Of a DNA stretch of 64,000 bases, positions 44,419-57,090 are shown one piece after another. The stretch is taken from positions 1-64,000 of the forward strand of contig JAXHNB010000001.1 of NCBI GenBank assembly GCA_034520945.1, read 5' to 3'. Source of the DNA: Trueperaceae bacterium. Its GTDB lineage: Bacteria > Deinococcota > Deinococci > Deinococcales > Trueperaceae. Each line of letters opens with the position of its first letter. Position 1 is the stretch's first letter. Position numbers and translations under genes: made by a program. The notes below the pieces were generated by a model, which saw nothing but the letters and a program-made list of their open reading frames with translations, had not been told where the DNA came from and searched no databases.

Positions 44419-44687
44419 TTGCGCACCAGCTTCTCGGTGATGGGGACCAGGGCCAGCATGCGGGCCCGCTTGATCGTCGTCGCCAGCCGGCGTTGGTGCT
44501 TGGCGCACACGCCCGTGCGGCGGCGCGGCAGGATCTTGGCGGTATCGCTGATGAAGCGGCGCACCATGCGTTGATCGTGGTAGGCCGTGATCTCCATCTC
44601 GCCCGTGCAGAACGGGCATACCTTGGGCCGGCGGCCCCGCCGGCCACCTGGGCGGCGGCGTTTGGCGTCTTTCGCGTCTCGTGCCAT
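44415..44687 (-). CDS. rpsR: 30S ribosomal protein S18 (Zn-binding form)
   Basis: KVCPFC, KILPRRRTGVCAKHQR, IKRAR. Confidence 0.96.
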   Translation of the reverse strand: MARDAKDAKRRRPGGRRGRRPKVCPFCTGEMEITAYHDQRMVRRFISDTAKILPRRRTGVCAKHQRRLATTIKRARMLALVPITEKLVRK

Positions 44688-45535
44688 CAGAAGGGTAGAT
44701 CCTCCTCGGGTGGGAATTCGTCGTCGATGTCCAATCGGCGTTCCTGCCCTGCCTGGGCGCCGCGGGCGTCCTCGCGGGATTGCGAGGCCGGTCCGCCGCG
44801 GGTCCCGGTTCCACCACCACCGGGACCGCGGGTCAGGAACTCCACGCGCGACCCTTCGATGCGCGTCGTGAAGCGCCGATTTCCGTCACGGTCGGTCCAA
44901 GAGTCGTTCACCAGGCGGCCGGACACGAGGACCGGGTCGCCCTTGCTCAACTCGGCGCAGCCCTCCGCCAACTCGCGCCAGACGTTGATGTCGACGAAGT
45001 GGGTCCGTTCCTGGTCCTGGCCGCTCTTGTCGCGAAACCGATCGTTCACCGCCATGCCGAAGCGCGCCACCGCCGCCCCTGAGGGCGTGTAGCGGAGCTC
45101 GGCGTCGCGGGTGAGGTTGCCGATCAGCGTCACCTGGTTCAACGCGCCGCGGAGGCGCTGTTGGCCCTTGGCGTCGCCGACCGTCGTCTCGCCGCTGCGG
45201 GGGCCGAACGTCATGGCCTCCACGCGCGTGGCGACCACGTCCAGTGCGCTGCGCCGTTGCCCGTCCTGGCTCTCCCAGGTGCGGTAGTCGACGCGCCCTT
45301 CGAGGAACACGGGGTCTCCTGCGTGCAGTTGGTCGGCCAGCATCTCGGCCTGGCCGCCGAACACCGTCGCGCGGTGGTACCAGGCCAGCTCGCGCTCCTT
45401 GCCGTCGTCGCCGACGACGTGATCGTTGCCGGCCAGGTTCAGCTCCAGGATGGCGAGGCCCCCGGGCGTGTAGCGCATCTCGGGGTCCTGCACCAGGGTG
45501 CCGACCATCAACACGTGATTCAGTCCTCGTGCCAT
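44687..45535 (-). CDS. ssb: single-stranded DNA-binding protein, two OB folds
   Basis: MARGLNHV..MRYTPGG and ALNQVTLIGNLTRDAELRYTPSG; tail EEDLPF. Confidence 0.97.
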   Translation of the reverse strand: MARGLNHVLMVGTLVQDPEMRYTPGGLAILELNLAGNDHVVGDDGKERELAWYHRATVFGGQAEMLADQLHAGDPVFLEGRVDYRTWESQDGQRRSALDVVATRVEAMTFGPRSGETTVGDAKGQQRLRGALNQVTLIGNLTRDAELRYTPSGAAVARFGMAVNDRFRDKSGQDQERTHFVDINVWRELAEGCAELSKGDPVLVSGRLVNDSWTDRDGNRRFTTRIEGSRVEFLTRGPGGGGTGTRGGPASQSREDARGAQAGQERRLDIDDEFPPEEDLPF

Positions 45536-46141: not shown

Positions 46142-47566
46142 TCACCCGCGCGGCGCGGCGTCCGCGTCCACGACCTCGTCGCCCGTCCAGGCGCGCGCCA
46201 CGGCCCGGGCGTCCCGCACGCAGGCGTTCACGCCGGCGCCGCCGTACGCGGCGCCCACGAGCGCCAGCGGACCCAGCGCGGCGGCCCGCGCCCGCCAGCG
46301 AGACACCCGGGCGGGGTGCCCCACGAGCGGTTGGGGGATGGCCCGAGGCCAGGTGAGGGTGCGCACGTGGGTGGGCGGGGCGTTCACCCCGAGCGTGACG
46401 CGCAGGTCGCGCCGCGCCACGGCCAGCGCCTCGTCCGCGCCCATGCGGACCAACGCCGGGTCGCGGCGCCCGCCGGCCAGGACACGCAACAGGGCGGTTC
46501 CCTCCGGCGCCTGCCCGGGGAATAGGGTGGAGGCGAACAGCACGCCCAGGCTGCGGGCGCCCCGGCCGGCGGGGATCAGGTAGCCGAAGCCGCCCAGGGG
46601 ATGCGGCACGTCGACGCGCCGGTAGCCGAGCGCGATCACGCGCATGGGCGCGTAGGGAAGGGCGGCCAGTTCGTCGGCCAGCTCGGCGTCGTGGGGCCCC
46701 AGCAGCTCCGCCGCCGCGTGGGTCGGCACCGCCAGCGCGACGCGGCGGGCCCGCACCTCCTCGGCGCCTGCGCAGCGGAGCCGCCAGCCGTCACGCTCGC
46801 GCGTCAGGGCGTGCACGGGCGTGCCGGTCCGCAGCGCATCGCCCGCGGCGGCGGCCAGGGCGTCGGTGAAGGCCTGCATGCCGTCGGCCCCGAAGCCGTG
46901 GAGGCGTGGGCGTGGCGGCGCGTCGGCGGTCGATGCGTCAGCGTGCGGTGCCGCGGCCTGGGCCCGTTTCGTGCGGGCCCGGACGGCACGCAGCAGGCTG
47001 CCGTGCCTCCGCTCCATGGCACGCAGCTCGGGAAACGCCGCGTCCAGCGAGACCTCGCGCGGGTCGCCGCCCAGGACGCCCAGCACCAATGCTTCGCCCA
47101 GCGCGTCGGCGGCCGGACGCCCGAACCTGCGCGCGAGGAAGGCGTCGACGCTCTCCTCTTCGGTGCCCACGGGCGCCCACGGCTCGGCCAGCGCGATCGC
47201 CTTGCCAAGGGGGCCGAGCAGTTCGCTACGCAGCGCCTCCCGCGGCGACGTGGGCAGCGGGCGCAGCCCGCCGTCCCGGTAGATCCAACGCGTGCGGGCG
47301 GCTGGATCGGCGGGCCGTGGGTCCGCCCCCAGCGCCCGGGCGAGGGGGACGGCGCCGTCTGCGTCGTCCAGCACGCCGCTGGGCCCCCAGTCGGCGAGGT
47401 ACCCCTCGGCGCGGCTGCTCCGCGCTGCGCCGCCGGGGGCCTCGTCGGCCTCCAGCACGGCGATCCGCCACGACGGCCGGGCGCGCCGCAGCAGGGCGGC
47501 CAGCGCCAACCCGCTCACGCCGGCGCCTACCACGGCGGCGTCGAACGTCGGCTCGGGGTGCGTCAC
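46142..47566 (-). CDS. hemY: HemY-type protoporphyrinogen oxidase
   Basis: VVGAGVSGL, LEADEAPGG, GFGYLIP, WPRAIPQ, GAGVNACV. Confidence 0.9.
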   Translation of the reverse strand: MTHPEPTFDAAVVGAGVSGLALAALLRRARPSWRIAVLEADEAPGGAARSSRAEGYLADWGPSGVLDDADGAVPLARALGADPRPADPAARTRWIYRDGGLRPLPTSPREALRSELLGPLGKAIALAEPWAPVGTEEESVDAFLARRFGRPAADALGEALVLGVLGGDPREVSLDAAFPELRAMERRHGSLLRAVRARTKRAQAAAPHADASTADAPPRPRLHGFGADGMQAFTDALAAAAGDALRTGTPVHALTRERDGWRLRCAGAEEVRARRVALAVPTHAAAELLGPHDAELADELAALPYAPMRVIALGYRRVDVPHPLGGFGYLIPAGRGARSLGVLFASTLFPGQAPEGTALLRVLAGGRRDPALVRMGADEALAVARRDLRVTLGVNAPPTHVRTLTWPRAIPQPLVGHPARVSRWRARAAALGPLALVGAAYGGAGVNACVRDARAVARAWTGDEVVDADAAPRG

Positions 47567-47625
47567 GGCGTGCACGATACCGCGGCCGTCGCGGCGTGCC
47601 GCCGGCGCGCGGGGTGGCCCGCCGT

Positions 47626-48618
47626 TCAGGGGCGGCGGTACACGAAGGTGGACCGGATCACGTACGGCCAGGTGGGGCGGGGGTCTTCGCCGGTGAACAG
47701 GCGGTCCAGGACCAGGCAGCGCACCTGGTGCCAGCCGGGGCTCAGGGGTGGGGTGCGGGCCGGGATCAGGGCGGCCGTGCCGCGCGGGACCTTGCCGTAC
47801 CACAACAGGCGCCCCTCGAAGGCGGGGAACTGCCGGTCGTTTAACAGGCAGGTGAGGGCGTACGGCCCGTCGTGGCGCGCGGACTCGCCGTACCACAGGC
47901 CGAAGCGCCAGACCTCCTCGCCGGCCGGCAGCACGTGGATCGATGCCGGGGCCCGCGGCGTGCCGCGGTCGTAGAGGTAGGCGTCGGGCAGGGGGGCCTC
48001 GGCGCGGGTCGCCTCGGTGGACGCCAGGCCGGGCGGTGGTGGCCGTGCTTCGCCGAAGGCCACGCGACGCATGTCGGCCTGGTCGTACGCGTACGTGACG
48101 GCGTCGGCGGGGGAGAGGGGCTGGTCGGGGCCGGCTTCGCGGATCGCCTCGGGCACGGCGGGCGAGGGGTGAGGGGTCAGGTGCACGTCGAGCGCTGTGC
48201 CGGCGGGATGCGGGAGGTGAACGCTCCACGCCGCCGTTTCCCCACACGCAACGGTGCGGACCGGATCAGGCCCGTGGCGCTGCACGCCGTCGGCGAAGGC
48301 CAGCATGGCGACGTCCACGGGCTGTGGGACCGAGATCAGGCGGAAGGTCGCACGAAGCGAGGTTGCGTCCGCGTCACGCTTCGTGTCGCTGCCCACCGAG
48401 TAGCGGATCCGGTCGGGCTGCGGGTCGGCGCAGGGATCGCGTTGGGCGTCGGCAGGATGGCCCGCCGCGAGCAGCGCGGCGGATAAGAGCAGGGTACGTC
48501 CGACCTTCCTTGCGCGGCGCACCCGCCCCGCCCCCATGTCGGGGGGCGGGGCGCCAGGGCGCGTGAGGGCAAGCCGGAACAAGGGCGGAGATGCGGGCGT
48601 ACCGGGGGGTCGGCTCAT
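47626..48618 (-). CDS. hypothetical secreted protein
   Basis: Basic stretch then LLLSAALLAAGHPADA; beta-rich, four Cys; ATGA overlap with upstream gene (alternative start 48537). Confidence 0.7.
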   Translation of the reverse strand: MSRPPGTPASPPLFRLALTRPGAPPPDMGAGRVRRARKVGRTLLLSAALLAAGHPADAQRDPCADPQPDRIRYSVGSDTKRDADATSLRATFRLISVPQPVDVAMLAFADGVQRHGPDPVRTVACGETAAWSVHLPHPAGTALDVHLTPHPSPAVPEAIREAGPDQPLSPADAVTYAYDQADMRRVAFGEARPPPPGLASTEATRAEAPLPDAYLYDRGTPRAPASIHVLPAGEEVWRFGLWYGESARHDGPYALTCLLNDRQFPAFEGRLLWYGKVPRGTAALIPARTPPLSPGWHQVRCLVLDRLFTGEDPRPTWPYVIRSTFVYRRP

Positions 48619-49163
48619 CGGTCGTATGTTTCGTCGTACTCGGGAAAGTCCCCCGCGTTCTCGATCCCCTTGTGCCAGCCGTCCGCCCGCAAGGAGTACT
48701 CTTCGTACTCCTGGCAGGGGGCGCTGTACGACACCGAGGCCGAGATCGCCGAGATCGGGCCGTAGCTGTCCTCGAACGTCTGATTGCGCAGCACGCCGTT
48801 GGCGTACAGCTTGACGTCGGCCGCCAGATAGTAGGCAGAGCGGTTGGCGACGGTGGAGGCGTAGGCGTCGGCGCTCCAGGTGAAGAAATCGCTGTCGGGG
48901 TAGAAGCAGTCCATGGCGAACACGTTCAGGTCGGTGGCGGAGTCGTCGAGGTGGAACGGCTCGTCGTCGTCGTACCCTTCGTCGTACCCGTCATCGTCGT
49001 CCCCGCCCCAGCCGGCGACGGTACGTGCCAGCGCGTCGGACGGGGCCGGAACGGGCCCCTCGGCTGCGGCGAGGCCCGCCAGCAGCAGCGTGAGCGTGAG
49101 CAACGTGGCCGTCCACGCCAGGCGTGCGCCCGGCGCCACGTCTCGGTGGGGATGGGCGTTCAT
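48615..49163 (-). CDS. hypothetical secreted acidic, Tyr-rich protein
   Basis: Signal TLLTLTLLLAGLAAA; WGGDDDDGYDEGYDDDE; ATGA overlaps at both ends; GGGAGG RBS. Confidence 0.75.
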   Translation of the reverse strand: MNAHPHRDVAPGARLAWTATLLTLTLLLAGLAAAEGPVPAPSDALARTVAGWGGDDDDGYDEGYDDDEPFHLDDSATDLNVFAMDCFYPDSDFFTWSADAYASTVANRSAYYLAADVKLYANGVLRNQTFEDSYGPISAISASVSYSAPCQEYEEYSLRADGWHKGIENAGDFPEYDETYDR

Positions 49164-49684
49164 CGCGGGCCTCCCTTCAGGCCGAGCTGCCGGGCCAACG
49201 CCGGGTCGGCGCCGGGGTGAGAGACGAGGCGGCGCAGCTCGGCACGGCCGACACCGCGTCCCTGCGTCCGGGCCCAGGCGGCGCGCACCTGCCCCATGGT
49301 CACGCCGGCCGCGTCGAGGTGACGGCGCAGCGCCTCGGGACCGGCGTGGAGCAGCACGTCGCGCGTGGCGGGCGGAACCTGGTTCAGCACCGCGTCGTCC
49401 AGGCGCAGCAGGTTCAGGTCGCGGCCGTGCGACAACGTTCGCGGCAGGCCGGGCGGGAGGCGCTTGCCCCCCAGCAGGAAGGTGCCGTCCTCCGCGACGG
49501 TGATCTCACCGAGTTCGGCGAGGTCCAGGGTGCGCATCACCTCGGCGCGCGTCCAGGTGGGGTGCGGCCGGTCGGCCGTCTCCACTTCGGGGGCGTCGGG
49601 CGTGCCGCAGGCGGCCAGCATCACCGCGAGCGCGGCGAGGGCGACGGCGACGCGTGTACGCGTGGCGGGGGGTGTGCGTGTCAT
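49160..49684 (-). CDS. hypothetical lipoprotein
   Basis: VALAALAVMLAA-C lipobox; GGAGGG RBS. Confidence 0.75.
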   Translation of the reverse strand: MTRTPPATRTRVAVALAALAVMLAACGTPDAPEVETADRPHPTWTRAEVMRTLDLAELGEITVAEDGTFLLGGKRLPPGLPRTLSHGRDLNLLRLDDAVLNQVPPATRDVLLHAGPEALRRHLDAAGVTMGQVRAAWARTQGRGVGRAELRRLVSHPGADPALARQLGLKGGPR

Positions 49685-49712
49685 AGGGGTCCCTCCGTGA
49701 ACGACTCGGGGC

Positions 49713-51137
49713 TCAGGGTCGGCGTCTGCGTGGCGTCAGCGGCCTCACCCCCCTTCGGCGCGTCGCCCCGGCCGCCAGGGCCAGGGCGGGAAGGTCGAGG
49801 GTGCCGCCGAAACGGGCGTAGGGCGTGCGGGCGCGTGCCCAGGCGAGGTCGTGCACCAGGACGGCCGGGTCCCGCCCCGAGGTGTGGGCCACGGTGCGGC
49901 CGCGTGCGTCCAGCACGGTCGTGGGCCCGGTCGCGGTGACGAACAGCACGGGCGTGCCGTTCTCGGCGGCGCGGAGGCGCGCCACCGCGAGCTGCAGGTG
50001 CGGCATGGCGCTTCGCCCCGCGAAGGCGGCGTCCGACACGGCGACGAGCGCGTCCGCGTCGCGGGTGGCGGCGCGGATCTCGGCGGCGTACACCAGGTCG
50101 AAGCACACCGCCAGGGACAGCCGTCGTGGGCCGAACGTCACCTGCGCGGCCTCCGTGCCCGCTTCGAAGCGATCCTCGTGCCAAGGCACGGGATGACGCT
50201 TGACGTAGCGCACGGCGGCGTCGTCGGCCAGGTCGACCACGGCGTTGCGGAGCCCGGCATCGTCGCGAACCGCTGCCCCGACCAACACGGCGAACGGGGC
50301 CGTACCGAAGACGGGCGCCACGCGCGGGCCGGCGACGCCGGTGGGGGAGAGCGTCCCCTCCGGCCCAATGATCAGCCTGGCGCCCTGGCGCACGGCCCGC
50401 CGCAGCTGCCCGTCCAGGCGCGCCCGTAGGGCACGGCCCGCCTCCGGCCACCGCGCCGCCCAGGCGCGATCGGCCCGGCGGACGCCGGTCTGCAGCAGGG
50501 CGACGCGGGTGGTCGCGTCCCCCGGGGACGCGCGCAGCGTGCGCGGCGGCACGGCGAGGTGGGTCGCCAGCAGCAGCGCGGTCAGGCAGCCGAGCCACAT
50601 CGCGGGGCGCCGCAGGGTGGCCGCCCGTGGGCGCCGCGTCGCCAGCGGGAGGTCCGCCACCGCGAGCGCGGCCAGCCATGCCGCCACGCTGGTCGTGCTG
50701 ACGCCGGCGAGGGCGGCGGTCGGTCCCAGCGGCGTGGCGGCCACCAGGTAGCCGACCCGGACGAGCGGCAGGCCGCCGAGGTGGCCCCAGGCGGCTTCGA
50801 CGCTCAGCCAGGCCGCGGCGAAGCCCAGCGACGCCGCCTGCATGGAGGCGCCGCCGCGTAGGGCGCGGGCGTGGACCGCGCCGGCGAGGGCGAAGGGCGC
50901 GGCGACGGGCAGGGCCGCCAGCGGCGCCCACGGCCACACCTGCACGGCGCCGCCCGCCGTTACCGCCAGCGCGGATGCGACCGGCAGGGCGGACGCCGCG
51001 CAGGCCCCGAGGTAGCTGCGGGCGCGACGGGCGGCGTGCAGGGCCAACGCCAGCGCGGGCACCACCAGGATCGCGAGGGCCTCGTGGGCGGTTCCGAGCG
51101 CCATCGTTGCGGTGGAGGCCGCCAGAAGCAGACGCAT
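49713..51137 (-). CDS. apolipoprotein N-acyltransferase (Lnt)-like protein
   Basis: Multi-TM N-terminus; nitrilase triad IIGPEG, YVKRHPVP, AVCFD; LRAAENG. Confidence 0.8.
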   Translation of the reverse strand: MRLLLAASTATMALGTAHEALAILVVPALALALHAARRARSYLGACAASALPVASALAVTAGGAVQVWPWAPLAALPVAAPFALAGAVHARALRGGASMQAASLGFAAAWLSVEAAWGHLGGLPLVRVGYLVAATPLGPTAALAGVSTTSVAAWLAALAVADLPLATRRPRAATLRRPAMWLGCLTALLLATHLAVPPRTLRASPGDATTRVALLQTGVRRADRAWAARWPEAGRALRARLDGQLRRAVRQGARLIIGPEGTLSPTGVAGPRVAPVFGTAPFAVLVGAAVRDDAGLRNAVVDLADDAAVRYVKRHPVPWHEDRFEAGTEAAQVTFGPRRLSLAVCFDLVYAAEIRAATRDADALVAVSDAAFAGRSAMPHLQLAVARLRAAENGTPVLFVTATGPTTVLDARGRTVAHTSGRDPAVLVHDLAWARARTPYARFGGTLDLPALALAAGATRRRGVRPLTPRRRRP

Positions 51138-51730
51138 CAGCCCGCCTCCGGCACGAAGACGAGGCCGGTCCATGCGGCGCGGAAGTCGTCCAGGGCGAGG
51201 CCGCGCAGGCCGCGCGCCGGGTCGGCCAGCAGCACGGCGCGGTCACTCAGGCGCCGCACCACCACCAGGTGGCCGGGCGCGGCAGGGGTGGGCGGCGCCA
51301 ACTCGGCGGCGAAGGGGCGGGGCAGGGCCGGCAGGTCGGTCAGGCGGGCGTGCAGCCAGCGGCCTTGGATCCCCACCTCGGCCGCCAGCGCCGCGACGTC
51401 GTCGAGGCGGAGGCCGGCGGGTCCCAGGCGGTCGCCGGCGCGGACGGCCAGATCCCCTTGGTCGAGGGACCGCCCGCGCGACGCGGCCAGCATGGCGACG
51501 ACGGCCAGGCCACAGTCGGTGGGCCGCCGTTGCAGCACCACGCCCTGGGTGCCGAGCGATAGGCTGCCGTCCGGCCGCTGGAGCGACGGAGGCAGCGGGC
51601 GCGCCAGCGGCGCCCAGGCCAGCACCCATGGCAGCAGGAACGCCAGCAGCCGGGCGGGGCGCGCCCGGCCGTGCGGTGCGCGGCGGGCAGGCCGGGGCGT
51701 GGGCTGGGGGGCGGGGCGCGGGAACGGCAT
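51137..51730 (-). CDS. stand-alone C39-family cysteine peptidase
   Basis: VLQRRPTDCGLA, GHLVVV, LLADPARG, FRAAWTG; N-terminal hydrophobic signal. Confidence 0.85.
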   Translation of the reverse strand: MPFPRPAPQPTPRPARRAPHGRARPARLLAFLLPWVLAWAPLARPLPPSLQRPDGSLSLGTQGVVLQRRPTDCGLAVVAMLAASRGRSLDQGDLAVRAGDRLGPAGLRLDDVAALAAEVGIQGRWLHARLTDLPALPRPFAAELAPPTPAAPGHLVVVRRLSDRAVLLADPARGLRGLALDDFRAAWTGLVFVPEAG

Positions 51731-51926
51731 GCCGCCACGGTAGGGGGGCCGCCGCCACGGTGCGCGGGGTGGTGGGCAGCCTGCCTAGCGCAGGGGTGCA
51801 CGCGGCCGTGTCGCCTTGGCGTCACGGACGGGCGGCGCCGTGGCCCGGCCTACGGCGCCGCCGCGCGACCCGGCCGAGCCCCCGGTTCGCGCTGGGCGAG
51901 GCGGTGCGCGGCTGGACCGGCCGGCC

Positions 51927-53051
51927 TCAGTCCGTCGCGTAGCCACCCTTCTTCAAAGACGGGCTGACGTTGGTGCGCTTGTACGGTGCCACCGGCTTCA
52001 GGACGTTGCGGCACTGCGGGTTGACGCAGCCGGGGCAGCGCAGGCCGTACTGGGTGCTGCACGCTTCGCCGCGCTTGAGGTGCTCGGCGACGATCTCGCT
52101 CAGCGCGTCCTGGAAGCGCGGCATGCCGTTGAGGGCCGGGGCGCGCACGTAGTTGTCGATGCCGACCTTCTCGGCCAGCTCGCCGTACTCGATGTCCAGT
52201 TCGTGCAGCGTCTCGATGTGGTCGCTGGTGAAGGCGATCGGGACGACCAGGACGTTCTTGCGCCTCTTGGCGCCCAGCTGCTCGATGACCGACTCGGTCG
52301 ACGGGCCCAGCCACGGCACGGGACCCACCTCGGACTGGTAGGCGATCAGGTACTCGTAGGCGTAGCCCAGCCGCTGCATCACCTCGTGCGTGGTGGCGCC
52401 GACCTCGGCCGGGTAGGGATCGCCCCGGTTGACGACGCTCATCGGCAGCGAGTGGGCGCTGAACACGATCGCCACGTCCTCGCGATCCTCGTCCGAGAAC
52501 TCGGCCAGGCCCTGGCGCACCGTTTCGGTCATGGCGTCCACGAAGGTGGCGTGCGTCGGCCAGCGGTCGATCACGCTCCATGTGAACGCGTCCTGCAGCC
52601 CCACGCGGCGGGCGGCCCGCCACAACTCGTTCAGCGACGAGCCGGTGGTCGCGCAACTGAACTGCGGGTACTGCGTGAACGCCACCGCCCGGGTGATGCC
52701 GTCGTCGTGCATCGCCTTCAGGGCATCCTCGCTGAGCGGGTCGATGTAGCGGAACGCCACGTAGTGGCGGTGCGGGGCCGTCTGGGGCGAGAGGGTGTCC
52801 AGGCGCTCGCACATGCCGCGGCCTTGGAGCTCGGTCCAGTCCAGGATGGGGCTGCCGCCGCCGATGTCCTGGTAGTTGCTCTGCACGCTCTTGGTGCGCC
52901 TGTTGGCGATGAACGGCCCCAGCCAACGCTGCGCCGGCAGCTGAATGATCTCCCGGTCGGCGAACAGCCGGAGCAGGAACGGGTTGACCTCGTCCAGGCG
53001 CTTCGGCCCACCGAGGTTCATCATCACGATTCCGGTACCACCTTGGCTCAT
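51927..53051 (-). CDS. hemH: ferrochelatase
   Basis: MNLGGP, GGGSPI, FSAHSLP, QSEVGPVPWLGP, AFTSDHIETL, C-terminal CPGCVNPQC. Confidence 0.97.
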   Translation of the reverse strand: MSQGGTGIVMMNLGGPKRLDEVNPFLLRLFADREIIQLPAQRWLGPFIANRRTKSVQSNYQDIGGGSPILDWTELQGRGMCERLDTLSPQTAPHRHYVAFRYIDPLSEDALKAMHDDGITRAVAFTQYPQFSCATTGSSLNELWRAARRVGLQDAFTWSVIDRWPTHATFVDAMTETVRQGLAEFSDEDREDVAIVFSAHSLPMSVVNRGDPYPAEVGATTHEVMQRLGYAYEYLIAYQSEVGPVPWLGPSTESVIEQLGAKRRKNVLVVPIAFTSDHIETLHELDIEYGELAEKVGIDNYVRAPALNGMPRFQDALSEIVAEHLKRGEACSTQYGLRCPGCVNPQCRNVLKPVAPYKRTNVSPSLKKGGYATD

Positions 53052-53109
53052 GCTGGCATCCTCTCCGAACCCGTGCATCGTCGCGTCACGGGGGTGCGAT
53101 GTGCGCTGA

Positions 53110-54186: not shown

Positions 54187-55223
54187 GCCGGCGCCTCCGC
54201 GGTCGCGGCGTGACGGTCGAAGCTTCGCACCGTATCGACGAGGACCTCGACGCGGGCGGGATCCACCATCGGCAGCATGCCGTGGCCCAGGTTGAACACG
54301 TGCGCACCGCCCAGGCCCGCACGCAGCACGCGCACGGCCTCATTGCGAACCGCCTCCGCGGGCCCCAACAGCGCGGCGGGGTCGAGGTTTCCCTGCAGGG
54401 CCGGCACGCGGCCGCCCACCGCGGCGCGCACCTGGTCCAGCGGGGTGCGCCAATCGACGCTCAGCGCCTCCAGCGGCAGGGTGGCGAAGGCGTCGTAGAG
54501 GTGCGCCGCCCCCACCGCGATGTAGATCCGCGGCACGCCCGTGTCGGCCAGGGCCTCCAGCACGCGGGCCGCGTAGGGCCGGCCGAAGGCGGCGTAGGTG
54601 CGGGCGTCGTGCAGGCCGGCCCAGGAGTCGAACAGCTGCACCGCCTGCGCCCCCGCCTCGATCTGGGCGCGCAGGTAGGCGATCGTCGTGTCGGTCAGCT
54701 TGTCCAGCAGCCGGTGCGCCAGCGCGGGCCGGGCCCGCAGCAGGCCGCGAAGCTGGGGGTACTCCTTGCTGCCGCCGCCCTCCACCAGGTAGGTGGCCAG
54801 CGTCAGCGGCGCGCCGCCGAACCCGATGAGCGGCACCTGCAGCTCGCCGCGCAGCAGGCGGATCGCTTCGGGCACGAACGGCGCGATCTCGCCCGCGTCC
54901 GGCACGCGGAGCGCGTCCACGTCGGCGTCTTGGCGGACCGGCCGGCGGATGATGGGGCCGGGCTGGAAGTCCACGTCGACGCCCATCGCCGGGAGCGGCG
55001 TCATGATGTCCTGGAACAGGATCGCGGCGTCCAGGCCGTAGCGCCGCACCGGTTGCAACGTCACCTCCGCCGCCAGCTCGGGGGTGCGGGCCAGCTCCCA
55101 GAACGCGTGGCGCTCCTTGAGGGCGCGGTACTCCGGCAGGTGCCGTCCGGCCTGCCGCATCAGCCAGATCGGCGCGCGCTCGGTATCTTCGCCGCGCACC
55201 GCGCGCAGGAACAGGTCGTTCAC
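54183..55223 (-). CDS. hemE: uroporphyrinogen decarboxylase
   Basis: PIWLMRQAGR, QLFDSW, LQGNLDP, NLGHG. Confidence 0.96.
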   Translation of the reverse strand: MNDLFLRAVRGEDTERAPIWLMRQAGRHLPEYRALKERHAFWELARTPELAAEVTLQPVRRYGLDAAILFQDIMTPLPAMGVDVDFQPGPIIRRPVRQDADVDALRVPDAGEIAPFVPEAIRLLRGELQVPLIGFGGAPLTLATYLVEGGGSKEYPQLRGLLRARPALAHRLLDKLTDTTIAYLRAQIEAGAQAVQLFDSWAGLHDARTYAAFGRPYAARVLEALADTGVPRIYIAVGAAHLYDAFATLPLEALSVDWRTPLDQVRAAVGGRVPALQGNLDPAALLGPAEAVRNEAVRVLRAGLGGAHVFNLGHGMLPMVDPARVEVLVDTVRSFDRHAATAEAPA

Positions 55224-55930
55224 GATTCCTCCTCGGGCGTGAAGCGGTAACCCACGCCCCACACGGTGTGGAAGTGCACCGGGCGGGCCGGGTCTGGCTC
55301 CAACGTCTTGCGGAGCCGCATCACCACGTTGTCGACGGTGCGGCTGCTGGGGAAGGCGTCGCTGCCCCACACCTCGTCCAGGATATCGTCGCGGCTGACC
55401 ACCTCGCCGGGTCGCGAGGCCAGCAGCCGCAGGATGCCGATCTCGCGCTCGCCCAGCGTCTCCTGCCGCCCGTCCGCAAGCGTCGCCGTCCAGGCGCGCA
55501 GGTCGACCTCGTGGCCGGCGAAGCGGATCGCGCGCCGCCCCTCGCCCCAGCCGCGGCGCCGCAGCACCGCCTCCACCCGCAACAGGAACTCCGGCAGGTG
55601 GAACGGCTTCGCCAGGTAGTCGTCGCCCCCGGCGGCCAGGCCCTGCACGCGCTCCTCGGGGCGGCCCTTCGCGGAGAGGAACAGGACGGGCGTCTCGTCC
55701 CCCTCCTCGCGCCGGATCCGGCACACCTCGAGCCCGTCCACGTGCGGCAGCATCACGTCGAGCACCACCAGGTCGAAGCCCCCCTCGCGCCAGCGCGCCA
55801 ATCCCTCGCCGCCGTCGTGCGCCAGCACGATCTCGTGCCCCTCCTCGCGCAGGTTGTCGGCCAGGACCTCGGCCAGGCCGCGCTCGTCCTCGATCACCAG
55901 CACGCGGGGACGCCGGCCGGGCGCGCTCAC
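55220..55930 (-). CDS. OmpR-family response regulator
   Basis: VLVIEDE, LDVMLP, DDYLAKPF, TVWGVGYRF. Confidence 0.95.
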   Translation of the reverse strand: MSAPGRRPRVLVIEDERGLAEVLADNLREEGHEIVLAHDGGEGLARWREGGFDLVVLDVMLPHVDGLEVCRIRREEGDETPVLFLSAKGRPEERVQGLAAGGDDYLAKPFHLPEFLLRVEAVLRRRGWGEGRRAIRFAGHEVDLRAWTATLADGRQETLGEREIGILRLLASRPGEVVSRDDILDEVWGSDAFPSSRTVDNVVMRLRKTLEPDPARPVHFHTVWGVGYRFTPEEES

Positions 55931-57090
55931 CGTCCCTCCTCCGCCGCCGGGGTGGAGGGGGCGTCCCTCGCCTGGCCCGCGGCCTCGACGCGGCGCGGGA
56001 ACACCACCGTGAAGCGCGTGCCCCGGCCCGAGGGGGCGTCTTGGACGCGCATCCATCCGTTCATCGCCTCGACGGTGCTTCGTGCCAGGTGCAGGCCGAG
56101 GCCGGTCCCGATCGCGCGCCGCGTGGACTCGTCCCCGCTGCGGTAGAAACGCCCGAAGATCTTGTCACGTTCGGCCGCGGGCACGCCCACCCCCTCGTCG
56201 TCCACGTGCAGCATCACCACGTCGGGCCCCTCCTCCAGCCGGACCGTCACCGGCTTGTCCTCGCCGGGGCTGTACTTGACGGCGTTGTCCAACAGGTTGG
56301 AGAGCACCATCGCGAAGGCGTCCTCGTCCAGCGACACGGGAAGCCGCCCCTCGGGGGGTACCCGCCGCACCGTCGCCCCGCGCGCCTCCAGGCCGGGCCG
56401 CGCCTCCTCCACCAGGCGGCGTACGACCGCGCCGAGGTCGACGGGCCGAAGATCGGTGGCGAGGGGCGCCTGCTCCAGCCGCGCCGCCGCCAGCACCTGT
56501 TCGGAGGTCCGCTCGAGCCGGTCCAGTTCGCCCACCATGCGCGTCAGGTAGTCGCGGCGGCGCTCCGGCGACAGGTCCCGCACCTGCGCCGTCTCGACCA
56601 GCAGGCGCAGCGTGGCCAGCGGCGTTTTGAACTCGTGGGTGATCGCGGACAGGAAGTTCTGCTGACTGCGCTTCAGCGCCCGCTCCTCCCGGAGCGACCG
56701 CGCGATCAGCGCCAGCATCGCCAGCATCACCAGCACGAAGAAGGGGCCCTCCCACGCGAACATGCGCAGGTAGCCGCGCTGCTCGCGCAGGAACGCCTCC
56801 CGCCGCGCCGGGTCGACCCGGAACGTGCCGTCCTGAAACGTCAGGTGCGGCTGCTGCGACAGGACCGCGTCGCGAAGCGCGGGGTCGTGACCCGACGTGT
56901 CCCACGCGGCCTGCGCCACCGCGGCGTCGTTGCGCCACGCCGCCAACCGCGACTCCGAGACCCCCTCGATGTAACTCCGCTGGAACAGCAGCCACCACAC
57001 CACCTGCGCCAGCAGGAACACCACGATCACCGCGAAGGCGATCCGCGTGGTGGTGCGGGAGGAGAGGCGGGGCCAGCGGGGCGGGCGCAT
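55927..57090 (-). CDS. sensor histidine kinase
   Basis: Two TMs; THEFKTPL, NLLDNAVKYS, DEGVG, GTGLGL. Confidence 0.95.
   Translation of the reverse strand: MRPPRWPRLSSRTTTRIAFAVIVVFLLAQVVWWLLFQRSYIEGVSESRLAAWRNDAAVAQAAWDTSGHDPALRDAVLSQQPHLTFQDGTFRVDPARREAFLREQRGYLRMFAWEGPFFVLVMLAMLALIARSLREERALKRSQQNFLSAITHEFKTPLATLRLLVETAQVRDLSPERRRDYLTRMVGELDRLERTSEQVLAAARLEQAPLATDLRPVDLGAVVRRLVEEARPGLEARGATVRRVPPEGRLPVSLDEDAFAMVLSNLLDNAVKYSPGEDKPVTVRLEEGPDVVMLHVDDEGVGVPAAERDKIFGRFYRSGDESTRRAIGTGLGLHLARSTVEAMNGWMRVQDAPSGRGTRFTVVFPRRVEAAGQARDAPSTPAAEEGR

Follow-up and report, generated by a model that had tools for sequence, protein, structure and literature searches.

Pairing of a C39 peptidase with an Lnt-like acyltransferase and leader-bearing clients points to a "cut, then lipidate" route of envelope anchoring in Trueperaceae

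A 64,000-nucleotide (nt) stretch from a Trueperaceae bacterium (contig JAXHNB010000001.1, positions 1 to 64,000; "the window" throughout) carries, on its minus strand, the gene for a C39 peptidase followed directly by that for an Lnt-like acyltransferase, hereafter LntL. Here, we report that the C39 peptidase and LntL constitute a real, recurrent two-enzyme module, and that their pairing with leader-bearing clients points to a "cut, then lipidate" route of anchoring proteins to the cell envelope. The account we favor, in which the C39 peptidase cuts an exchangeable, Sec-exported client and LntL then N-acylates it, is held tentatively, at slightly less than an even chance. The textbook view of bacterial protein lipidation is of a single pathway, in which Lgt, Lsp and Lnt act on a lipobox cysteine. 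An earlier note on this DNA, made from the letters alone, had envisaged an extracytoplasmic cleave-and-acylate system dedicated to the proteins encoded beside the two enzymes.

We first consider how far the pair is conserved. With the peptidase of the window as query, a match was found in 18 of 41 genomes, its own included (family f1, 14 of 24; family f5, 3 of 4; three other families, 0 of 12), and an Lnt-like gene adjoined the C39 match in all 11 loci returned. A C39 profile built from 18 family members was searched against 364 genomes of the phylum and gave matches of at least 130 bits at 67 places in 62 genomes, all belonging to families f1 and f5, the next best match scoring 74 bits. At least 61 of these 67 C39 matches were followed directly, on their own strand, by an Lnt-family match, across gaps of 2–227 nt (median 41). 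As for the other six, two have LntL by locus comparison, one lies at a contig end and three fall outside the matches listed; two LntL genes without a listed C39 gene also lie at contig ends. As a rough control, a C39 gene was present within 4 kb at none of 18 Lnt loci of other phyla and at the one Trueperaceae locus. The pair occurs twice in the genome studied here. The neighborhood search supports the earlier note's inference as far as the two enzymes are concerned: C39 and LntL form a dedicated pair, and the pair recurs.

The peptidase gene (51137–51730, minus strand) encodes 197 amino acids (aa). Residues 64–194 match PF03412 at 52.1 bits (cut-off 22; E = 7.6e-14), and the best sequence match in the PDB is the peptidase domain of PCAT1 (4ry2, 7n87), with whose catalytic residues Q67, C73 (51512–51514), H154 and D170 align. 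This Gln/Cys/His/Asp set is retained in 15 of 15 relatives of what we call type 1, the copy in the window among them. The N-terminus is Arg-rich and continues into a hydrophobic segment at residues 26–43; a hydrophobic 18-mer flanked by Lys/Arg recurs near the N-terminus of 19 of 19 open reading frames (ORFs) of the family, 13–86 residues before the catalytic Gln, and an outward-facing C39 domain is therefore predicted. Judged from these sequence features, the peptidase is predicted to be membrane-anchored on the outer face of the cytoplasmic membrane, and both it and LntL should act outside the cytoplasm. The 197-aa protein contains no ATP-binding cassette (ABC) domain and is thus not a fusion of the PCAT kind. 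The catalytic residues, the signal-like N-terminus and the missing ABC domain had all been noticed before, and the PF03412 match and PCAT1 alignment agree with that description. Among 1.84 billion representative proteins, 45 reached E = 1e-30 or better with the C39 profile, all of them 134–259 aa long; with so few members at this level, the family proper is small. Of 14,206 library matches, the best 150 showed no evident C39–Lnt fusion, as judged by length and match position only.

LntL (49713–51137, minus strand) comprises 474 aa when read from the ATG at 51137, the frame remaining open to 51173. It combines a polytopic membrane domain with a CN-hydrolase domain (PF00795, 53.6 bits), and its match to the Lnt equivalog TIGR00546 spans both the membrane and the catalytic parts, at 106.7 bits against a cut-off of 132.9. 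E260, K313, E321 and C345 (50103–50105) are invariant in 14 of 14 aligned sequences and correspond to E267, K335, E343 and C387 of Lnt, LntL aligning to the E. coli enzyme around C387; the roles of these residues are taken from PMC7943197. The Glu-Lys-Cys set that the earlier note had recognized is thereby confirmed, with E321 in addition. All LntL sequences lack some 20–24 residues that canonical Lnt has between the second Glu and the Cys, the spacing being 24 in LntL compared with 44 in E. coli Lnt and 39 in AatD. The latter belongs to the Aat system of enteroaggregative and enterotoxigenic E. coli and is, according to Icke et al. 2021 (PMC7943197), an Lnt homologue both required and sufficient for acylation of the N-terminal Gly of CexE/Aap.

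A separate canonical lnt, which it had seemed important to look for, lies on contig 2 of the same genome (277.7 bits; cut-off 132.9), and LntL is accordingly an extra copy. The genome also contains lspA, which at 103.7 bits exceeds its cut-off, and an lgt-like gene that at 105.5 bits falls just short of its own (118.9). We built a maximum-likelihood tree of 31 rows, in which a branch with 100/100 support split 11 canonical Lnts from the 20 other rows, these including all 17 C39-linked ones. The LntL of the window grouped (98/94) with C39-linked copies from four genomes of the same genus, although its very long branch (1.88) counsels caution over this placement. A canonical Lnt copy was present too in 12 of 12 genomes sampled for the tree. 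Searches farther afield returned 38 plasmid records with Lnt-family matches to LntL by tblastn, 34 of them annotated lnt, aatD not being retrieved; a word-indexed protein search with LntL returned four proteins and was little informative.

These data bear on the simplest alternative, namely that LntL is a spare housekeeping Lnt serving lipobox lipoproteins and that the peptidase is an unrelated neighbor. LntL has kept the Lnt catalytic residues and membrane domain, and in the window it is followed by the gene of a classical lipoprotein (49160–49684, minus strand; 174 aa; lipobox LAAC at residues 23–26), which such an enzyme might serve. Yet that lipoprotein gene is not beside the pair in 19 related loci, the C39 gene adjoins LntL throughout nearly all of the strong C39 places counted above, and the LntL clade stands apart from canonical Lnt in genomes that have the canonical copy as well. 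We therefore consider a spare Lnt very unlikely. The 174-aa lipoprotein itself is probably a substrate of the ordinary Lgt/Lsp/Lnt pathway.

Clues to the clients of the pair came from the genes that follow it. We clustered 21 loci, made up of 19 fetched from relatives, the window and the second pair of this genome. A gene of family F2 directly follows LntL in eight of them, the lipoprotein gene together with that of a 182-aa protein (p182) does so in one, the window, and three represent a variant with a dead peptidase. The usual order after F2 is a secreted protein of ~300 aa belonging to no known family and then a weakly TolC-like protein. All eight F2 proteins (for example those at L036:10347–11012, L025:10015–10608 and L027:6517–7332, with five more from related loci) carry a Sec-type signal peptide, some 15–20 residues ending in (S/T)(E/D)Lxx(V/I)x(G/A)G and then (x)CxxxC, after which a Gly/Ser/Asp-rich linker leads into a beta-rich domain of ~135 residues. 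The motif at the end of the propeptide is the classical double-glycine leader consensus, and the invariant CxxxC stands directly after the predicted cut. Neither F2 nor F28, F48, F29, F18 or F43 belongs to any Pfam or NCBIfam family.

In the window, the likely client is p182 (48615–49163, minus strand). It consists of a Sec signal peptide (residues 1–34), a propeptide (residues 35–51, EGPVPAPSDALARTVAG; 49011–49061, minus strand) that forms a double-glycine-type leader behind the signal peptide, an acidic, Gly-rich linker (WGGDDDDGYDEGYDDDE) and a beta-rich domain in which two cysteines, C86 and C150, are invariant. Eleven homologues with 50–83% identity were found in metagenome assemblies, all of the same layout, and their propeptides follow the pattern P.P..(D/E)L…(R/T)VAG with G51 invariant. 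Profile–profile alignment with hhalign placed VPAPSDALARTVAG of p182 on RPLGSSELTAVHGG of F2 (probability 87%, E = 3.9e-6), G51 falling on the second Gly; the propeptide is the only stretch that aligns between the two families, which are otherwise unrelated. Members of both have an ELxx(V/I)xGG-like leader, with Gly at −1 and a small residue at −2, and in every one the leader follows a Sec-type signal peptide instead of lying at the extreme N-terminus. A loose motif scan of 3125 called genes gave 10 hits, of which p182 was the best and the only one to have, besides the motif, both a signal peptide and a Gly/Ser/Asp-rich tail (fraction 0.72). Sequence and model together predict C39 cleavage of p182 after G51. 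Homologues of the peptidase, LntL and p182 have equal longest-contig sizes, 3431 and 4234 bp, which suggests that the three travel together in at least two further relatives. The AlphaFold2 model of p182 is mostly beta but of low confidence, with a mean predicted local distance difference test score (pLDDT) of 54.9, so its Foldseek matches to Af_0446, PDE6D and C2 domains are leads only, as is a likeness to DUF6147 proteins in the ESM Atlas (template modeling (TM) score 0.71).

The fit between leader and peptidase was assessed by modeling C39 residues 55–197 (alignment of 18) with p182 residues 33–78 (alignment of 12) in three runs. The interface score ipSAE was 0.61, 0.59 and 0.61, compared with 0.00 for the best of three controls; the mark used is reached by 116 of 157 solved complexes and by 2 of 215 mismatched pairs. 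The runs shared at least 76% of their contacts, with a partner pLDDT of at least 54, and in the modeled interface p182 residues 36–42 and 44–53 faced C39 residues 67, 70–74, 152–155 and 171–172, the region of the Gln, Cys and His. The model shows that the p182 propeptide resembles a C39 leader, and it says nothing of actual cutting. The idea of a system for the co-encoded proteins thus stood in part: the leader of p182 suits the peptidase by alignment and by interface score, whereas neither the 174-aa lipoprotein nor the 330-aa secreted protein encoded at the end of the gene row contains a double-glycine-type motif.

We then asked what kind of protein the F2 clients might be. Their model is confident over residues 85–221 (pLDDT 80–96), and the five entries that head the VIA-align list, with Z scores from 9.2 to 8.2, are all members of the aerolysin family. 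They include LSL (1w3a; Z 9.2, root-mean-square deviation (rmsd) 3.0 Å over 129 residues), a Bombina aerolysin-like protein (6lh8; Z 8.8, rmsd 4.2 Å, 123 residues) and lamprey LIP (5zu4; Z 8.6, rmsd 3.7 Å, 132 residues). An aerolysin/ETX-MTX2 pore-former fold is therefore likely for the mature F2 domain in the model, but it is not settled, because Foldseek TM-scores were only 0.2–0.36.

Such a fold invites a different account, that of a maturation and release system of the bacteriocin or pore-former kind that relies on the protease alone: C39 strips an inhibitory N-terminal propeptide from a secreted effector (the aerolysin-fold protein in relatives, p182 in the window), a TolC-like protein exports the product, and LntL has some other task, for instance membrane-lipid remodeling or protection of the producer. 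Aerolysin-type pore formers are commonly activated by propeptide removal, bacteriocins typically carry double-glycine leaders, and weakly TolC-like genes stand in many of the loci (family F38, which matches OEP at 22.9 bits with a cut-off of 22, and families F29 and F47, linked to F38 by BLAST). The clients, however, use Sec signal peptides, and the loci contain no gene for an ABC exporter or adaptor; the window has no TolC-like gene, and p182 is not predicted to have the aerolysin fold. A profile of the TolC-like set matched nothing in the PDB below E = 0.9. Maturation by the protease alone would also leave unexplained the near-obligate coupling to a catalytically intact Lnt paralogue, and we regard this account as rather unlikely.

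Family f5 supplied observations of a separate kind. At three loci of this low-G+C sister family (L021, L022 and L026; 42–49% G+C), two genes come before the pair: a TolC-like one, matching OEP at 22.9 bits, and an OmpH/Skp-like one, scoring 40.7 bits and showing a lipobox-like VAGC. The pair has no client gene after it there. At another, L045 (G040 contig 72), an LntL-clade gene has upstream only a fragment of a C39-like ORF (45.8 bits, profile positions 83–158), which may represent a decaying pair.

The second pair of this genome, on contig 2 at ~85524–88500 (locus L008 1–3038) and hence outside the window, belongs to the variant with a dead peptidase, which we call type 2. In all three such C39-like domains, from this genome and two relatives of the same genus (L030 and L031), the Cys is replaced by Gly, Thr or Ala and the His by Arg. 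These pairs are preceded by a gene for a secreted protein of no known family, 338 aa long in this genome, with a tail-fibre-like N-terminal motif (F.DGD.L.A.DLN.LF); L030 and L031 carry an extra Big_5 Ig-like protein. The type-2 variant suggests that the C39 domain serves, at its core, to bind the leader or substrate, and it opens a further possibility: C39 might be a leader-binding adaptor that hands the client to LntL, acylation taking place at the N-terminus left by signal peptidase or on a side chain, with no C39 cut. That all three type-2 pairs, the second pair of this genome included, lack the Cys and His yet stand beside LntL speaks for such a role, as does the precedent, mentioned by Rouse et al. 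2017 (PMC5557850), of type 1 secretion ABC transporters whose C39-like domains are non-catalytic and chaperone substrates. Conversely, retention of the full catalytic set by every type-1 protein argues that proteolysis is selected, and the leader ends in small residues of the kind after which C39 enzymes cut. A pure adaptor appears improbable to us.

Returning to cutting followed by acylation as the reading we favor, the route might run as follows. The client, p182 in the window, is predicted to be exported by Sec, and behind its signal peptide it is predicted to carry a propeptide of ~17 residues resembling the double-glycine leader of bacteriocins. The anchored C39 peptidase would bind this leader and would cut after the Gly, at …TVAG|W in p182 and at …VxGG|(x)C in the clients of relatives. 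LntL, by analogy, would move a fatty acyl chain from a membrane phospholipid to the new alpha-amino group, and the client might then be lipid-anchored via its flexible acidic, Gly-rich tether. The client would in most relatives be a small aerolysin-fold protein, apparently replaced by p182 in this lineage, in which both enzymes seem to have diverged fast. We infer C39 cleavage of the client; N-acylation by LntL would follow from its likeness to AatD, and that of its clients to CexE, together with a lipoprotein-like layout in which a flexible linker comes after the predicted new N-terminus.

Several observations weigh against this reading. No same-strand gene follows LntL in 6 of the 21 loci, with three more cut by contig ends, and the complete genome G305 has an LntL-clade gene and no C39 match. 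The residue after the predicted cut varies, being W, T, F or S in the p182 family and T, G, V or C in F2, whereas the acceptor in the Aat system is made by signal peptidase I and has to be Gly; here the acceptor would be made by C39, with a variable first residue. LntL falls short of the equivalog score set for Lnt and is missing the loop that in Lnt separates the second Glu from the Cys, so its substrate may differ. As leader complexes of PCAT-type enzymes (PCAT1, LahT) have been solved, the good score of our complex model may reflect likeness or memory, and the co-occurrence read from the contigs of 3431 and 4234 bp is deduced from their equal sizes, not directly seen. Finally, as the type-2 domains have neither Cys nor His, acylation at those loci cannot depend on C39 cleavage.

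A bolder version of the same reading is that the system represents a third route to bacterial lipoproteins, in which an N-terminus made by C39 is acylated by the lid-less LntL without lipobox, Cys or Gly, on exchangeable clients (aerolysin-fold pore formers in most Trueperaceae, p182 in this lineage, and fibre-like proteins with the dead peptidase). We think this possible, though on balance doubtful. With clients being exchangeable, the leader would then act as a portable "lipidate me" tag.

We next turn to the setting of the pair in the window. The ORF list places five minus-strand genes between hemH (51927–53078; TIGR00109, 347.7 bits) and hemY (46142–47575; TIGR00562, 214.6 bits), as described earlier. 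Downstream of the peptidase, LntL, lipoprotein and p182 genes, the fifth encodes the secreted protein of 330 aa (47626–48618, minus strand), or of 303 aa if the ATG at 48537 is the start. Because long ORFs fill every frame at 72–79% G+C, we used a codon-usage caller whose training set was 687 long ORFs from this genome. It called exactly these five genes in the block (scores: C39, 73.7; LntL, 149.3; 174-aa lipoprotein, 62.4; p182, 96.6; 330-aa protein, 90.3) and rejected the overlapping plus-strand ORFs. The overlapping junctions reported in the earlier note are all present in the sequence: the stop codon of C39 overlaps the start of LntL (TGATG, 51139–51135), and ATGA overlaps lie at 49163–49160 and 48618–48615. 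The last of these holds as a gene overlap only if the 330-aa gene starts at 48618, and the caller preferred the ATG at 48537, directly before the signal peptide. Positions 51742–51728 read TACCGT, six bases (GGCGGC) and ATG, so the hexamer proposed earlier (51737–51742, minus strand, six bases before the peptidase ATG) is there as a string of letters and might serve as the −10 element of a leaderless transcript. A sigma-70 scan of 47400–52000 found no promoter on either strand, and the same scan found no minus-strand terminator inside the five-gene block. On the plus strand, a terminator-like hairpin with a T-rich tail sits exactly at the p182/330-aa junction (48608–48624; two overlapping calls, 0.5 expected), probably by chance.

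The five genes did not prove to be a conserved set. No match to p182 or to the 330-aa protein was found in 40 related genomes, where the 174-aa lipoprotein gave weak partial matches only. The latter belongs to no Pfam family and has one weak match of the signal-peptide type in NCBIfam (17.5 bits, below cut-off). The 330-aa protein carries a signal peptide, belongs to no Pfam or NCBIfam family, shows no similarity to families F28/F48 of the relatives and gave an uninformative best score of 0.79 in the ESM Atlas. We also considered whether the three proteins downstream of LntL are homologues of F2 or of F28/F48 and rejected the idea, as hhalign of the single proteins gave probabilities below 2%. 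Hidden Markov models of F2 and F28/F48, run against 29,345 six-frame ORFs of the genome, gave nothing beyond a lone match at E = 0.031.

The earlier note had also pointed out the position within the heme gene cluster. Across the 21 loci compared, the module lies upstream of rpsF-ssb-rpsR-rplI in seven, and its own upstream neighbor varies, being hemH in some genera and a P-type ATPase or proline dehydrogenase gene in others. We therefore rejected a functional link to heme synthesis; with the module standing behind those other genes in other genera, its presence in the heme cluster appears to be a matter of inherited synteny.

The surrounding gene rows have features of their own. A response regulator and a histidine kinase (55220–57090, minus strand) are inserted in the heme gene row between hemE and hemB, an arrangement kept in several related genera (families F10 and F12). 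The hemY frame stays open for ~670 nt upstream of its likely start at 47575 (46142–48247, minus strand) and so runs into the 330-aa gene, which is no fusion but an artefact produced by the very high G+C content. Between rpsF and rpsR, ssb (44687–45535, minus strand) encodes ~275–282 aa, roughly double the usual length, which would presumably fit the two-OB-fold SSB of the Deinococcus-Thermus group.

We found no paper linking a C39 peptidase with an Lnt-type acyltransferase in the full-text literature, subscription-only papers and supplements being outside the scope, and papers that name C39, Lnt and N-acyltransferase together do so incidentally, going by their titles and abstracts. Within that scope, the view that the combination is undescribed stands. 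Both components are of known kinds, each with experimental precedent: a periplasmic C39 of the FapD type and an Lnt paralogue of the AatD type. Not described so far is that the two occur as an obligate pair, that the leader is placed after a signal peptide and that the clients are exchangeable. If the pairing works as proposed, acylation of other N-termini by Lnt paralogues, which AatD demonstrated in 2021, would extend beyond enteric pathogens, periplasmic C39 peptidases would gain a defined substrate motif, and a short tag, transplantable to other proteins, might serve to anchor them by lipid to the cell envelope. The aerolysin-fold clients also prompt the question of whether this is a means by which bacteria tether or activate pore-forming modules of their own.

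Comparison with known systems places the module closest to several familiar parts without equating it with any. Going by the published description of AatD, both systems pair a Glu-Lys-Glu-Cys Lnt paralogue, beside a housekeeping Lnt, with a small Sec-exported client that has no lipobox and has a Gly/Ser-rich stretch after its mature N-terminus. The Aat cluster also includes a TolC-like gene, here found only in relatives and weakly so. Unlike Aat, the window encodes neither the AatP/AatC ABC transporter, nor the AatB adaptor, nor the TolC-like AatA, and p182 has a 17-residue propeptide after its signal peptide and no invariant N-terminal Gly. FapD, from the Fap amyloid system of Pseudomonas, is described by Rouse et al. 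2017 (PMC5557850) as an active C39 enzyme located in the periplasm, with a substrate that is still unclear. Like the enzyme described here, it is a stand-alone exported C39 with the catalytic Cys that acts on Sec-exported proteins of its own operon, an activity that is predicted in our case; unlike it, FapD comes without a paired acyltransferase, and its unclear substrate contrasts with the canonical-looking leader seen here. The NCBIfam model C39_FapD (NF058616) scores 18.5 against a cut-off of 330, and no fap genes are among the neighbors. PCAT1 (4ry2, 7n87) shares the fold family, the catalytic residues and a substrate leader of the ELxxVxGG type, whereas the peptidase of the window stands free of any ABC transporter, should by prediction face the periplasm and not the cytoplasm, and has a leader placed after a Sec signal peptide and not at the extreme N-terminus. 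A further comparison is with the non-catalytic C39-like domains of HlyB-type ABC transporters in type 1 secretion. The type-2 domains, that is, those of the second pair and of two relatives, resemble them in lacking Cys and His, consistent with substrate binding, but belong to stand-alone, membrane-anchored proteins paired with LntL, and the copy in the window is catalytically intact. With Lnt itself (TIGR00546; PDB 5n6h, 5xhq), LntL has in common the polytopic membrane domain, the periplasmic CN-hydrolase domain and the equivalents of E267, K335, E343 and C387; it differs in its score below the equivalog cut-off, its separate clade, its shorter Glu–Cys loop and its not being the only copy in the genome, and in that its predicted acceptor has no diacylglyceryl-cysteine.

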